Source: Candidatus Stammera capleta
GTDB lineage: Bacteria > Pseudomonadota > Gammaproteobacteria > Enterobacterales > Enterobacteriaceae
Direction: 5' to 3'
Assembly: GCA_036884335.1 (NCBI GenBank)
Contig: CP145599.1
Coordinates: 40,900 to 104,899, forward strand
Length of the DNA stretch: 64,000 nucleotides
In this document: positions 3,258 to 58,250 of the stretch, piece after piece
Position numbering within the stretch: the stretch's first letter is position 1
How the letters are laid out: each line of letters starts with the position of its first letter
Notes under the pieces: generated by a model
The model's input: the letters and a program-made list of their open reading frames with translations, nothing else
What the model was told of the DNA's origin: nothing
The model's database searches: none
Translations under genes and position numbers: made by a program

Positions 3258-3569
3258 ATGCAAAATCAAAGAATTAGAATAAAACTTAAATCTTTTGATC
3301 ATAGATTAATTGATATTTCTACTATAGAAATAATAGAAACTGCTAAGAAAACAGGAGCAAAAGTTTGTGGTCCTGTTCCATTACCAACTTCTATTAAAAA
3401 ATATATTGTTTTAAGTTCACCTCATGTTGATAAAGATGCTAGAGATCAATATGAAATTAGAACACATAAAAGGTTAATAGATATTGTAAAACCTACAGAA
3501 AAAACTGTTGATGCTTTAATGAAATTAGATTTAGCTTCAGGTGTAGATGTTAAAATTATTTTGGATTAA
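3258..3569 (+). CDS. rpsJ: 30S ribosomal protein S10
   Basis: Intact 103-aa ORF beginning [19 protein letters not shown], typical of S10. It is the first gene of the S10 operon after tuf. Confidence 0.95.
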
Positions 3570-3580
3570 ATATAAATATA

Positions 3581-4228
3581 ATGATTACTTTAGTAGGTAT
3601 AAAAATAGGAATGACTAGAATATTTGATTGTAAAAATATTTCTTTTCCAGTTACTATTATTAAAATTTATGATAATATTATTGTTAATATAAATAATAAA
3701 AATAATATTAAAAATATTCAAGTAACTATTGATAAAAAATATAAAAAAAATATAAATAAATCTTTATTAGGTATATATAAAAAAAGTAGAGTAAAACCTG
3801 GTATAGGTGGTATATGAAGTATTCCTTATATAGAAAAAATTCATAAAAATATAGGTCAATTTATTAATTTAAATATATTTAATAATGTTAAATATGTTGA
3901 TGTTACTGGAATAAGTAAAGGTAAAGGTTTTTCAGGTACTATTAAAAGATGAAATTTTAAATCTCAAGATAAATCTCATGGTAATTCTTTATCTCATAGA
4001 GTTCCAGGTTCAATAGGTCAAAATCAAACTCCTGGAAGAGTTTTTAAAGGTAAAAAAATGTCTGGTCATTTAGGTAATGTAAAAGTTACTATTCAAAATC
4101 TTAAAATAATTAATATTTATTTAAAAAAGAAAATTTTATTAGTGAAAGGATGTATACCTGGTTATAATAAAAATTTTGTTTTTGTAAAATCTTCTATTAA
4201 AAAAAAATTAGGTTTTTATGAAAGTTAA
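3581..4228 (+). CDS. rplC: 50S ribosomal protein L3
   Basis: ORF 3581..3817 reads on through TGA 3815..3817 and 3950..3952 to TAA 4226..4228. [47 protein letters not shown] is the L3 signature. Confidence 0.93.
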
Positions 4229-4823
4229 ATTATTTGACACAAATGAGATTATATTATTATCAAATAATATATTTAATATTAATTTTAATAATTATTTAGT
4301 TCATGAAGTAGTTACTTGTTATAAAAATAATAAAAGGAAGGGTAATTCATGTCAAAAATCTAGATCTGATGTTTCAGGTTCAAATAAAAAACCATGAAGA
4401 CAAAAAGGTACTGGTAGAGCTAGATCAGGATCAACTAAAAGTCCTATATGAAGATCAGGTGGTGTTACTTTTGCTTCTAAACCTAAAAAATATTATTTTA
4501 AAGTTAATAAAAAGGTTTATAGATTAGTTTTAAAAATGATTTTATCTAAATTATTAATTAAAAATAATATATATATTTTTAAAAATATATATATTAATAA
4601 ACCAAAAACTAAATCTTTTTTAAAATATTTTAGTTTTGTAAATAATTTTAGATGTTTAATAATTTTAAATAAATTAGATGATAATATTATTTTATCTTCT
4701 AGAAATTTATATAAATTTAAAGTTTGTGATGTTTATCATATTAATGTTATAGATTTATTATCTTTTAGAAGTATTATATTTGATATTAATTCTATTAGAT
4801 ATATAGAAAATAAATTATTATAA
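4218..4823 (+). CDS. rplD: 50S ribosomal protein L4
   Basis: ATG at 4218 overlaps the rplC end by 11 nt. [26 protein letters not shown] is the classic L4 motif, with TGA at 4395..4397. Same frame as track ORF 4536..4823. Confidence 0.93.
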
Positions 4824-4824
4824 A

Positions 4825-5121
4825 ATGAATATTAATAATAGTATTTTAAAAAGTTTTTATTTAACTGAAAAATTTTTTTATCTTTCAAAAAAAAATAATG
4901 TAGTTATATTTAAGGTTGATAAATGTTATAATAAATTTCAAATATTAAATGTTTTTGTTAAATATTTTAATTTAAAAGTTCTTAAAATAAGAACTGTTTT
5001 AGTTAAAAAAAATATTTTAAATAAAAAAAAAAATAATTTTAGAATATCTAAATGAAAAAAAGCTTATATATTCTTAAAAAAAGGTGAGAATTTAAAAATA
5101 GATAATATTAAAAATAAATAA
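4825..5121 (+). CDS. rplW: 50S ribosomal protein L23
   Basis: ORF 4825..5055 continues through TGA 5053..5055 (..[18 protein letters not shown], matching the DWKKAYVTLKEGQ region of L23) to TAA 5119..5121. Confidence 0.9.
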
Positions 5122-47302: not shown

Positions 47303-47779
47303 TTAAAATGGTATATCATCAAAATCTATAGATATATCTTCTGATTTATTTTTTATTTTATTTTTATTTTTTTTTTGTTTTTTATTTTTATTTTTTTTAT
47401 TTAATATTTTTTTTTCTATTTTTTTTTTATTTTTGTATCCTAACATTTGCATTGTTCCGTTCATATTTACTATTATTTCTGTTATATATCTATCATTTCC
47501 TTTTTGATCTTGTCATTTTCTAGTTTGTAATGATCCTTCAATATATACTTGTGATCCTTTTTTAAGATATTCTGCTGCTATTTCTGCTAATTTTCCAAAT
47601 AGAATTACTCTATGTCATTCAGTTTTTTCTCTATTTTCTCCAGTGTTTTTATCTTTTCATATTTCTGAAGTAGCTATATTTAGATTTGTTATTGTATTTC
47701 CATTTGACATATATCTTATTTCAGGATTTTGTCCTAAATTTCCTATTAATATTACTTTATTTATACCTTTACTTGACAT
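47303..47779 (-). CDS. ssb: single-stranded DNA-binding protein
   Basis: Begins [65 protein letters not shown]. The acidic tail is ..DFDDIPF. The linker is Lys/Asn-rich. Confidence 0.92.
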
Positions 47780-47863: not shown

Positions 47864-49249
47864 TTAATAATCATATTTTTTGTTTGCATAATTATCAAAT
47901 CTTGATATTTTACCATTAAAAATTAAATGTATTGTTCCAGTAGGCCCATTTCTTTGTTTTCCTATTATTATTTCAGCTATACCTTTCATATCTGAATTTT
48001 CATTATATACTTCATCTCTATATATAAATATTATTAGATCTGCGTCTTGTTCTATAGAACCTGATTCTCTTAAATCAGAATTTACAGGTCTTTTATCTGA
48101 TCTTTGTTCTGATGATCTATTTAATTGTGATAATGCTATTATTGGTATTTTTAATTCTTTTGCTAATAATTTTAATGATCTGGAAATATCTGCTATTTCT
48201 AATGTTCTATTATCTAAATATGTAGATGATTTCATTAATTGTAAATAGTCTATCATTACTATACTTAATCCTTTATTTTCTCTATATATTTTTCTTGTTC
48301 TTGATCTTATATCTGTAGGTGTTAAATTACATGAATCATCTATAAAAATATTTTTTTTTTTTTCTAATATTTTTATTGTATTTATTATTTTAATTCAATC
48401 TTCATTATTTAATTTACCTGTTTTTATTTTATTTTGATCTACTCTAGATAAAGATGAAATTATTCTAATTATAATTTGTTCTGATGGCATTTCTAAACTA
48501 AAAATTAATATTGGTTTTTTATAAGACATAGATATATTTTCACAAATATTCATTGCAAATGTAGTTTTTCCCATAGATGGTCTTGCAGCTATTATTATTA
48601 AATCTGATTTTTGAAATCCAAATGTTTTTTTATTTAAATCTATATATCCAGTATTTATACCAGTAATATTTTTTTTAGGATTTTTATATAATTTTTTTAT
48701 TTTTTTTTTAGTTTTTTTAATTATGTTTTTTATATTTTGTGGTTTATTTTCATTATTTAGTTTTTCTTCTGATATTTTAAATATTTTTGATTCTGCTAAA
48801 TCTATTATTTCTTTACTATTTCTTCCTTGTGGATTAAAACTATGTATTATTATTTCATTAGATATATTTATAATTTTTCTTAATATTGATTTTTCTTTTA
48901 TTATTTCTGCATAATAATTTATATTAGATACACTTGGTATATTTTGAGATAATTCAGCTAAATATTCAAATCCACCTATTATTTCTAATTTTTTATTTTT
49001 TTTTAATGATTCTGATAGTGTTATTAAATCTATAGGTTTATATGATTCTAATAATTTTTTCATTTCATTAAATATTATTTGATGAGATTTATTAAAAAAA
49101 TCGTTAAAGTTTATTATTTCATATATATTTTCTCATTTATCGTTATCTAACATTAATCCTCCTAATACTGATTGTTCTGATTCTATAGAATATGGAGGTG
49201 TATTAATTTTTTTATTTTTTATTTTATTATTTTTAAAAAAATTTTTCAT
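47864..49249 (-). CDS. dnaB: replicative DNA helicase DnaB
   Basis: ATG is the complement of 49247..49249. Contains TPPYSIESEQSVLGGLMLDNDK-W. The Walker A region is ARPSMGKTTFAMN. The C-terminal piece has ..IIALSQLNRSSEQR..IIGKQRNGPTG. All pieces are in one frame. 461 codons. Confidence 0.95.
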
Positions 49250-53963: not shown

Positions 53964-54248
53964 ATGAAATATAAATATTTTTGAAATAAAGAAATTGCTA
54001 TTAATATAGCTAAAAAATATGATATAAAATTAAAAAAAATTCATTGAAAAATTATTTATTATTTTAGATCTTTTTATTTTAAAAATAAAATTTTACCTAA
54101 TATTAGATTAATTTTAATTTATTTAAATAAAAATAATAATAATAAAAAATATAATAGTATTTATTTATTTAAGTTATTTTCTATTAATTTATTAAAAACT
54201 ATTTCAGATATTTCTGGTTTGAAAAATAAATTAATAGTTTGTTTTTAA
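53964..54248 (+). CDS. tusE: sulfurtransferase TusE / DsrC-family protein
   Basis: 94 codons with two TGA. ..-W-NKEIAINIAKKYDIKLKKIH-W-KIIYYFRSFYFKN.. and the C-terminal SIYLFKLFS..ISDISGLKNKLIVCF parallel E. coli TusE (HWEVVRFVRDFYLEF.., SRYLYRLFP..KIAGLPKPVKCI), including the near-terminal Cys. Confidence 0.7.
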
Positions 54249-55849
54249 TATATTTTAATTTTATATTTTATTTTATATAAATTTATTATTTTAATAATTT
54301 TTTTAGTGAAAAGATGTAGTTTTTTATTAAATTTACTTTGTATAATTATATTTCATTTGTATTTTATATTTTTTTTTTTATTTAATTTTGGTTTATTAAT
54401 AAATATTTTTTTTTTAAATTTTTTTATTATATTTTTAGTTTTAGATCAAAAATATAAAAATTTTATATTATTTATTTTTTTTATTTTTATTGTTATTTCT
54501 TTTAAATAAGGAGGATATTTTATTATTTTTCTTTGTTTTATAATATTTAATATTATTTTTATATAGTTATTTTTTTTTATATATTTAAATATTTTATTTT
54601 TAGGATATTTTGTATAAAAAATTATTATTTTTTTATTTTTATTATTTATTTTTTCTATAAATTTAAAATATTTTTTTGTAAATATTTCTATTGATTTATA
54701 ATTTTCAGAAATAATATGTTTATCTATATTTAATATTAAAATTAATTTTATTTTTTTTTTAAATTTGAATTTTTTTGAAAATATAATTAGATTATTTATT
54801 TTTTTTTTTTTTATTTTTTTTTTATAAATTAAAAAATTTTTAATTTTATTTATATTTTTATATTTATTTTTTTTTAATATTATTAATATTTTTTTATTTT
54901 TATTTATATAATATATAATTTTATTTATTATTTTTTTTTTTTTTTTTTTATATATATATATTTTATTAAAGAAAAAATTTTTTTTTTTTTTAATTTTTAT
55001 AATTTTATATTTTTTTTTAGTTATATTATATATTGTATTTATCGATGGTGTTGTTGATTCTAATATTACATCATTTTTTTCTATTTTTGATCTTATTATA
55101 GAAAGATTTTTAGCATTATATAGTAATTTATTTTTATATAAATTATTATTTTCGTCAAATACTATTATTAATCCTAAATTTTTAAATGGAGTAAATATAG
55201 ATGATTTAGTTCCTATTATTATTTGTATTTTATTTTTTTTAGTTTTATTTCAAATATTAATTTTTTTTTTTATTTTTATTTTTGAATTTAATATTATAAT
55301 TTTTTTTTTTATTTTTTTTTTTATTTTTTTTTTTATTTTTTTTATTTTATTTTTTTTTGGTACTAAAATTAATATTTGTAATTTTTTTTTTATTTTTTTT
55401 TTTATTATTTTACATAATAATTTTATTTTATTATATTTATTATATTCTTTTATTAAATATATATTAGATTTTTTTTTTTTTATTTTTTTTTTTTTATTTT
55501 TTTTTTTTTTAATTTTTTCTATTTTATATTTTTTTTTATTTTTAGGTATTATATTAAATATAATTTTATTTATATTATAAAAATAATATTTTGAACAAAA
55601 ATTAATTAATTTAATTATTTCTTTATTTAAAATTGAATATTTATCAATAATTTTTTTTATTTTTATAATATTTTTAAATTTTAAATTTGTGTGTTTTTTT
55701 TTATAAATTTTTCATATTACTCCAATTAATTTTTTTTTATTTAAATTAATTATTATTCTTGATCCTATTTCTATTTTATTTTTATATTTTATTTTATAAA
55801 ATGAATTATTTGTTTTATTTTTTGGTAATATAGTTTTAATTATAAACAT
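54245..55849 (-). CDS. priA: primosomal protein N' (PriA), reduced and probably helicase-defective
   Basis: I translated the full minus strand with only TGA interruptions. Contains ..IEIGSRIIINLNKKKLIGVI-W-KI, QILILVPKK, IQIIIGTKSSIFTPFKNLGLIIVFDENNNLYKNK, ILESTTPSINTIYNI, ..IKYPPYL.. and ..YK-W-NIIIQSK, colinear with E. coli PriA. 534 codons. Confidence 0.8.
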
Positions 55850-57944: not shown

Positions 57945-58250
57945 TTATTTATTTGGATTAATTTTAATTATTAAATATTTAATATTTTTGTTTATAATTG
58001 ATATTATTTTTTTTTTTTTTTTATTTAAATATATTTTTCATATTGGATTTGATATTTCAAAAGTTAAAGTATCTTTATTGAAATTTATTATTTTACATTG
58101 TTTTTTAATATATTTAGGTATTATTTTTTTTATTTTTTTATTTAGATTTTTTATGTTTTTATATTTTTTTATTATTTTTTTAAAATTATAAATATTTAAT
58201 TTTTTTTTATTTAATATATTTATTATTAATTCTGGTTTTTTTTTATCATA
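57945..58250 (-). CDS. hypothetical protein, tentatively DUF721/DciA-like; open frame without a canonical start codon
   Basis: My codon-by-codon minus-strand translation gives 101 sense codons between TAA (complement of 58251..58253) and TAA (57945..57947): YDKKKPELIINILNKKKLNIYNFKKIIKKYKNIKNLNKKIKKIIPKYIKKQCKIINFNKDTLTFEISNPI-W-KIYLNKKKKKIISIINKNIKYLIIKINPNK. There is no ATG, GTG or TTG. The first table-4 alternative starts are TTA at 58227..58229 and ATA at 58224..58226. Confidence 0.35.

Follow-up and report, generated by a model that had tools for sequence, protein, structure and literature searches.

PriA has been studied almost exclusively in Escherichia coli, which provides the reference point for the protein considered here. 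In the E. coli enzyme, the tail of SSB binds at a site between helicase lobe 1, the 3' DNA-binding domain (3'BD), and the C-terminal domain (CTD), and the cysteine-rich region (CRR) serves at once as the dock for PriB, the wedge for unwinding, part of the pore for single-stranded DNA (ssDNA), and the gate of the DnaT site, which lies on lobe 2 and the CTD. With its ATPase dead, E. coli PriA still supports replication restart, but only through PriB, which docks on the CRR. A naturally motorless form, published as a pseudohelicase, has been described in Deinococcus radiodurans: biochemically, its PriA binds ssDNA, forks, and DnaB but shows neither ATPase nor helicase activity (PMC4504706). The subject of this analysis is the priA gene in a stretch of 64 kb (contig CP145599.1, hereafter the window) from a symbiont of Candidatus Stammera capleta type with a genome of 245,200 bp. 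Candidatus Stammera capleta lives with tortoise and hispine leaf beetles as their pectinolytic symbiont. The ATPase, the winged-helix (WH) domain, and the CRR are treated in E. coli as the core of the restart switch; all three are gone from the symbiont protein, and what remains is still under selection.

Alignments and structure predictions show a vertically inherited priA that has been reduced to the 3'BD, a linker, lobe 1, a shrunken lobe 2, and the CTD, with its nucleotide motifs destroyed. Owing to this motif loss, ATPase and 3'-5' helicase activity are predicted to be absent. The product is most likely a non-catalytic fork/SSB adaptor of declining importance. In the fuller form of this reading, to which we give somewhat better than even odds, it would be a passive, very basic protein that binds SSB-coated forks and helps, together with DciA, in the placement of DnaB, a useful but dispensable function. 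The features of the gene and its product are given below in window coordinates.

54245..55849, minus strand: priA orthologue, 534 codons plus TAA under code 4, assigned by homology and synteny
55541..55849, minus strand: 3'BD, residues 1-103 (PF17764), with the fold kept and Y18 as the only pocket residue retained
55466..55540, minus strand: Lys-rich linker, residues 104-128, standing in for the WH domain in the alignment
54980..55465, minus strand: helicase lobe 1, residues 129-290 (Pfam DEAD; phmmer match to E. coli PriA 229-380)
55424..55447, minus strand: degenerate Walker A, EYNKYNKI opposite GVTGSGKT in alignments
55172-55216, minus strand: conserved IGTKSSIFTPFKNLG block in lobe 1, from alignment
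55148..55159, minus strand: degenerate Walker B/DExH, FDEN opposite DEEH in an ungapped alignment
55043-55060, minus strand: motif III, ESTTPS, in lobe 1, from alignment
54605..54979, minus strand: shrunken helicase lobe 2, residues 291-415 (AlphaFold2 model and Foldseek)
54752..54859, minus strand: Cys-free segment of 36 residues, 331-366 (alignment and AlphaFold2), predicted to be helical
54641..54664, minus strand: degenerate motif VI, KFIEKINN opposite QVAGRAGR in alignments, without Arg
54248..54604, minus strand: CTD, residues 416-534, with conserved RKIIKYPPY and KWNIIIQ blocks
55250..55252, minus strand: TGA codon 200, read as Trp, opposite an invariant PriA Trp
55712-55714, 54446-54448, and 54353-54355, minus strand: the other in-frame TGA codons, from the reading of the frame under code 4

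An earlier interpretation of this DNA from its letters alone (the sequence-only reading) had described a 534-codon open reading frame (ORF) collinear with E. coli PriA, and homology and position both bear this out. E. coli and Klebsiella PriA chains match the product in three collinear pieces (phmmer, E 1e-33), Pfam PF17764 (PriA_3primeBD) matches at E 9.3e-14 with 51.5 bits against a cut-off of 22.7, and Pfam DEAD matches at E 1.8e-7. The NCBIfam priA models reach E 3e-55, but their best score is 187.8 bits against an equivalog cut-off of 858, and TIGR00595 likewise scores below its threshold (134 against 230); the Pfam search gave no match to PF18074, the model for the CTD. The gene order tusE-priA-rpmE is shared with other Stammera and the pair priA-rpmE with E. 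coli. The divergent orientation of priA and rpmE and the proximity of hslVU, found in E. coli and in all Stammera loci examined, support orthology by position. The convergent tusE (DsrC family, 53964-54248) overlaps priA by 4 nt (54245-54248) at the stop codons.

Recognition of the gene depends on the genetic code. Under table 11, the minus-strand frame at 54245-55849 is broken by four TGA codons (46, 200, 468, and 499); under code 4, the annotation that Stammera genomes carry in the literature, it is a single ORF of 534 codons with a TAA stop. Two of the four, TGA-200 and TGA-499, align with Trp residues that are conserved from E. coli to every relative. A list of ORFs drawn up with table 11 fragments most genes of the window because UGA encodes Trp here, and in-frame TGA codons are also present in rpoH (5), htpG (6), and ssb (3). 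The window as a whole has a GC content of ~15%, and that of priA is 6.8%. The product consists to 67% of Lys, Ile, and Asn (32% Lys) and carries a net charge of +159; 171 of its Lys codons are AAA, and the gene contains 23 homopolymeric A tracts of 9-19 bases, such as A19 at 54931-54949. Genes on the minus strand of the window are richer in Lys in general, and the high Lys content is therefore partly an effect of strand composition. A scan for promoters and terminators is uninformative at this AT content (34 sites against 33.5 expected). A chance ORF was ruled out by the number of stops elsewhere: the coding frame contains none internally, the other two sense frames contain 83 and 92, and shuffled sequences contain 24-66. 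The frame is open even though 264 of the 534 codons lie one mutation away from TAA or TAG, and all 23 homopolymer tracts of at least 9 bases are in frame.

The motifs that bind and hydrolyze nucleotide in PriA are degraded throughout. The sequence-only reading had placed a degenerate Walker A, with its Lys kept and its Gly residues lost, at EYNKYNKIKLL (55415-55447, residues 135-145), and both coordinates and alignment agree: K141 lies opposite E. coli K230, and every Gly as well as T231 is lost. For the DEEH box it had proposed DENN at 55145-55156 (residues 232-235). The string is present at these positions, but the register was one residue off. The stretch from IGTxS to YK aligns without gaps and sets F231-D232-E233-N234 opposite D320-E321-E322-H323, so that Phe takes the place of the Walker B Asp. 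The losses also reach beyond those originally described, to motif VI, to the motif IV Arg pair R427/R428, which has no counterpart and falls into an alignment gap, and to the entire WH domain (about 105-199 in E. coli), which is replaced by a linker of about 19-25 residues. Degeneration of the P-loop is not general in this genome. GxxxxGK[ST] is intact at seven further P-loop sites of the window (EF-Tu, Der with two, Lon, ClpX, HslU, and DnaX), ruling out a general loss through base composition, and the motif loss is specific to PriA because these P-loops and the MGKT of DnaB have been kept.

The second major loss is that of the CRR. Between ILIILKKNKY and IKLILILNIDKH, the window protein has exactly the 36 Cys-free residues that had been counted before, compared with ~120 in E. 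coli that include the eight-Cys region; the segment takes the place of the CRR and of about 45 residues of lobe 2. Only two Cys residues occur in the whole protein, both outside the CRR position, and the two-zinc region with its four CxxC motifs is missing. The proposed disappearance of the CxxC zinc region and shortening of lobe 2 withstands closer inspection, as no TGT or TGC is found in any frame downstream of nt 780 of priA. This absence of Cys codons, together with the alignment of a relative's PriA in one frame across the whole window ORF, rules out a hidden, frameshifted CRR. A frameshift at one of the long A tracts, which would have marked the ORF as a pseudogene, is likewise not present in the window copy. 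The remainder of the protein is well preserved by comparison. The CTD is recognizable, as had been claimed, in the match of residues 366-531 to E. coli 550-721 (third phmmer domain, i-Evalue 2e-6), and all positions that are invariant across a 45-sequence PriA alignment are kept.

Structure prediction with AlphaFold2 (AF2), performed on window residues 201-467 with the 45-sequence alignment and on the closest full-length relative (P0001, 591 aa), recovers the PriA fold. The window model has a mean predicted local distance difference test score (pLDDT) of 84 and a predicted TM-score (pTM) of 0.80, and its best Foldseek matches in the PDB are PriA structures, with E-values down to 4e-10 and query TM-scores (TMq) of 0.71-0.76. 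AF2 and Foldseek together are consistent with two RecA-like superfamily 2 (SF2) lobes of PriA type, the second of them shortened. Lobe 2 is modeled as a compact alpha/beta domain with five strands, in which the 36-residue segment forms helices between two strands. The model of P0001 (pLDDT 82) matches PriA with E 1e-36 and TMq up to 0.81, the best E-value being that to an engineered E. coli PriA that lacks the WH domain (6DCR), and its linker in place of this domain is predicted to be disordered (pLDDT <50).

Comparison across about 264 retrieved PriA sequences places these losses in order. ATPase deadness is no peculiarity of this gene: it is common to all Stammera, to many other symbiont PriAs, and to Deinococcus. 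In all Stammera PriAs retrieved, Walker A and the Arg of motif VI are missing, no proper DExH box is present, and a short linker takes the place of the WH domain. The same losses are found in the symbionts of the reed beetles Donacia and Neohaemonia, a Sodalis-like symbiont of the aphid Drepanosiphum, Ca. Lightella, and further lineages, and some of these non-Stammera proteins keep part of the WH domain. The CRR is retained in ATPase-dead symbiont PriAs such as P0023, P0024, P0057, P0079, P0121, P0123, P0156, P0163, and others, and all eight Cys are kept in those outside the three-genome clade described below. In Stammera, CRR-keeping proteins are encoded at the same locus in CP024013.1 and CP043978.1 (591 aa each) and in CP144802.1 (621 aa). 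They are ATPase-dead and WH-less, like the window protein, to which they are 45-58% identical, and differ from it by having all eight Cys and 57-98 more residues. In the reference genome, CP024013.1, the 591-aa gene is intact. Residues of the CRR that contact PriB in E. coli (D438, S481, T482, H483) are not conserved in these CRR-keeping Stammera proteins.

An initial protein search returned no relative closer than 56-58% identity. Use of RpmE, the gene for which contains no TGA, as bait led to two closer genomes, CP043980.1 (245,897 bp) and CP144810.1 (250,393 bp), the priA genes of which had escaped the protein search because they are split. Both are CRR-less. CP043980.1 has the same 36-residue junction as the window, and CP144810.1 has at this position (frame B, ...INKNIYKYYKNKLKYKKKNKKFYILLYKK...) a longer Cys-free remnant with a possible Tyr for Cys (TGT to TAT). 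Although the sequence is of low complexity, this remnant is suggestive of a loss of the Cys residues before deletion of the segment. Loss of the CRR is thus common to a small clade of three small genomes, represented by three independent assemblies, and of the CRR-less copies only that of the window is unbroken. Judged from this comparison, loss of the CRR is younger and rarer than loss of the ATPase, and the Stammera genes form a graded series of erosion in which first the ATPase, then the WH domain, then the CRR, and finally the gene are lost, with the window as the latest intact stage.

A number of observations weigh against a working adaptor. Among 11 neighboring genes, priA is the most diverged (53% identity to CP043978), and its composition is the most extreme among 24 genes compared, with the lowest GC content among its neighbors. 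Faithful expression may suffer from runs of up to 19 A. The 3'-end-binding region had been called recognizable, which is correct for its fold but not for its contacts: of the four 3'-end contacts listed for PriA (PMC5778457), three are not kept (F stands in place of D17 and I in place of K61, and G37 lies in a gap of the alignment), which may weaken recognition of the nascent 3' end. In E. coli, ATPase-dead PriA in the absence of PriB has the effect of a priA null, and changes in the CRR that block PriB binding abolish DnaB loading in vitro. The closest relatives add to this list. The priA gene of CP043980.1 (L009, about 3351-4950) carries one frameshift in a T14 run and is otherwise open, and that of CP144810.1 (L010, about 3299-4952) carries one frameshift in a run of ~21 A and is otherwise open as well. 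In CP043985.1 (245,213 bp; L011 2969-3001), only 31 bp separate tusE from rpmE, and no PriA-like sequence is found at the locus. Because of these frameshifts and this absence, priA function is judged dispensable in the genus Stammera and could already have been lost in the window. In CP043985.1, tpiA is also missing beside rpmE.

Several of these points also count in favor of the strongest rival, in which the ORF is open but idle, a functionless relic headed for the deletion that another Stammera lineage has already undergone. The disappearance of all catalytic motifs, the WH domain, and the CRR fits such a fate, as do the low GC content and high divergence of the gene and the disruption of its nearest relatives. 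A further split copy is found in CP144843.1 (L007 2035-3814, CRR kept), where a frameshift at A13, in a linker predicted to be disordered, gives a 116-aa ORF for the 3'BD and a 437-aa remainder. E. coli priA works when expressed in two pieces, an arrangement that this split recalls. The lesions in CP043980.1 and CP144810.1 could reflect assembly error, a gene rescued by slippage, or very recent inactivation; with one lesion per relative, each in a T14 or ~21-A run, assembly error or transcriptional slippage is plausible. The absence of stops and the in-frame state of all long tracts in the window copy also speak against a relic, as do the confident PriA-like AF2 fold and the retention of family-wide invariant residues.

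A further argument against a relic comes from substitution patterns. Ratios of nonsynonymous to synonymous substitution (dN/dS) were estimated by the Nei-Gojobori method (NG86) with bootstrap confidence intervals (CI), an approach that is crude at 7% GC, such that only the comparison with neighboring genes is safe. Synonymous divergence (dS) of the window from the 260-kb Stammera genomes is saturated beyond use, and the closer genomes found with RpmE were taken instead. For priA, dN/dS is 0.216 between the window and CP043980.1 (95% CI 0.16-0.29) and 0.389 between the window and CP144810.1 (0.29-0.51), with equal values on both sides of the relatives' frameshifts. In the same two pairs, secA gives 0.25 and 0.37, rpoH 0.18 and 0.36, and rsmH 0.34 and 0.63. 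The CRR-less priA is thus under purifying selection, with values within the range of its neighbors. Between two related CRR-keeping Stammera, priA has a dN/dS of 0.21, in the range of rsmH, tpiA, and murE, and ATPase-dead PriA is therefore a stable, selected state in these symbionts. With this evidence, we regard a functionless relic as unlikely, although it remains the most serious competitor of the adaptor. The sequence-only suggestion of a natural helicase-dead PriA finds good support in the sequence, with the destruction of Walker A, Walker B, motif IV, and motif VI in a gene that is under purifying selection.

The putative partners of such an adaptor are encoded nearby, as follows.

47303..47779, minus strand: ssb, inferred partner, with an intact acidic C-terminal tail (...DFDDIPF)
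47864..49249, minus strand: dnaB, presumed cargo; its P-loop is of Walker A type (ARPSMGKTT), and identity to the Stammera orthologue is 87%
57945..58250, minus strand: DciA-family ORF, 101 codons from stop to stop, without ATG (PF05258, E 3.5e-10)

The DciA-family ORF scores 40.4 bits against a gathering cut-off of 24, lies between rsmH and secA at a distance of 2 kb from priA, and has orthologues in four other Stammera loci; it presumably begins at an alternative start codon. Its presence implies that the operator of DnaB in this symbiont would be of DciA rather than DnaC type. The dciA gene has been reported in some Enterobacterales, and DciA has been proposed to cooperate with PriA. Loss of dnaC and dnaT is reported for several reduced symbionts in which priA persists. 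A table for the Donacia symbiont lists PriA, DnaB, SSB, and RecBCD and has no entries for PriB, DnaT, DnaC, or DnaA, which is a weak negative at best, and the literature and supplements on Stammera contain nothing usable on priA, priB, dnaT, dnaC, or dnaA. The precedent originally invoked for a functional helicase-dead protein, the E. coli Walker A Lys mutants that still assemble the primosome, does not transfer to this gene: those mutants need PriB on the CRR, which is absent here, and the operator found is of DciA type.

From these components, a mechanism can be sketched for the favored adaptor. The window protein would neither hydrolyze ATP nor unwind DNA. Its 3'BD-lobe 1-CTD surface, which in E. 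coli forms the site for the SSB tail and a large part of the surface that binds DNA, would bind forked or SSB-coated DNA, and the bound adaptor would assist in positioning DnaB, probably alongside the DciA-type operator whose gene lies 2 kb away, and without PriB, DnaT, or DnaC. Without a CRR, it would have no PriB dock, no strand-separation wedge, no closed pore for ssDNA, and no gate over lobe 2 and the CTD. With no such gate, binding of any partner would therefore be constitutive and not switched by the structure of the fork. That the gene is kept for DnaB loading or restart, as proposed in the sequence-only reading, is something we also infer, for a function that is dispensable in the genus. 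A more ambitious version, in which the window protein is a working minimal PriA, a scaffold of 3'BD, lobe 1, mini-lobe 2, and CTD that has neither motor, zinc, WH domain, nor gating and yet suffices to recognize SSB-coated abandoned forks and to hand over DnaB with DciA in the absence of PriB, DnaT, and DnaC, is conceivable, but we hold it only tentatively.

A different role altogether is improbable. The protein might serve as the main, DnaA-independent loader of DnaB at D-loops or R-loops, or as a general polycationic factor for DNA or SSB. The net charge and the preserved SSB tail would suit such functions, the altered 3'-end pocket may mean that recognition of fork 3' ends has been lost, and the oriC of Stammera was placed by its authors through GC skew. 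The survival of CP043985.1 without priA at the locus argues against an indispensable initiator, and the high Lys content that would make a polycationic factor is in part an effect of strand and composition that other genes on the minus strand show as well. Very improbable is an artefact of assembly or annotation behind the absent CRR or the intact ORF, or ATP binding at a non-canonical site: homopolymer-rich DNA of 7% GC is hard to assemble and, for E. coli PriA, a second nucleotide site, weaker than the first, has been suggested, but the CRR is lost at the same junction in two further independent assemblies, a relative's protein aligns end to end in one frame, and the window protein has lost the Gly and Thr of Walker A, the Asp of Walker B, and the Arg of motif VI, with the motif IV Arg pair in a gap.

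If the working minimal PriA is the correct reading, the Stammera deletion series would define an irreducible core of PriA function and offer a first handle on PriA-dependent restart in the many bacteria with DciA. The series makes visible which parts of PriA can be dispensed with where PriB, DnaT, and DnaC are probably not in play, and the conserved core would be the surface to which the 3'BD, lobe 1, and the CTD contribute. The proteins also amount to small natural constructs for studying the cooperation of PriA with SSB, DnaB, and DciA. A practical consequence concerns annotation, as many symbiont proteins are labeled in public databases as "replication restart helicase PriA" although they cannot be helicases. 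The genome is that of an unculturable organism and dominated by drift, and the reading draws on sequence and structural models.

Set beside known systems, the window protein shares with E. coli and Klebsiella pneumoniae PriA (4NL4, 6DGD, 8FAK) its orthology, its position beside rpmE, and the order 3'BD-lobe 1-lobe 2-CTD. It differs in its length of 534 rather than 732 aa, in the loss of the WH domain, the CRR with its zinc sites, Walker A, Walker B, motif IV, and motif VI, in the absence of the PriB dock, and in the changes at D17, G37, and K61. With Deinococcus PriA it has in common degenerate motifs I and II, a retained gene, and a proposed non-catalytic role in DnaB loading (PMC4504706). 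As judged by these features, it would also be a pseudohelicase, with motifs I and II that appear non-functional and a gene maintained by selection. The change in Deinococcus is subtle in comparison, from GKT to GRT with a poor Walker B, and took place in a large, free-living genome, whereas Stammera PriA has lost far more, independently, by reductive evolution in a gammaproteobacterial symbiont. Among the ~264 sequences, the only other PriA with neither CxxC motifs nor Walker A comes from a TARA Oceans scaffold (P0027/P0028, L006 3793-5496). This protein of 567 aa shares 31% identity with that of the window and belongs to an unrelated lineage of marine bacteria, in which the standard code applies and the GC content is 25%. 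The lobe 2 of the TARA Oceans protein, inspected by eye in the sequence, looks complete, with only the CRR excised. The TARA Oceans gene directly follows rpsF-rpsR-rplI, and no priB lies between rpsF and rpsR.

Each natural loss in the window protein also has an engineered counterpart in E. coli, namely priA300 (K230R), the delta-WH construct (6DCR), and the CRR mutants priA301 (C479Y) and D438A/T482A/H483A. The literature searched contains no description of a helicase-dead PriA in insect symbionts and none of a natural CRR-less PriA. A helicase-dead PriA is already known from Deinococcus; the CRR-less, selected form and its Stammera context are new. E. coli K230R is viable and supports restart, and the losses in combination would be expected to be null in E. 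coli, yet the Stammera gene that carries all of them is still constrained.

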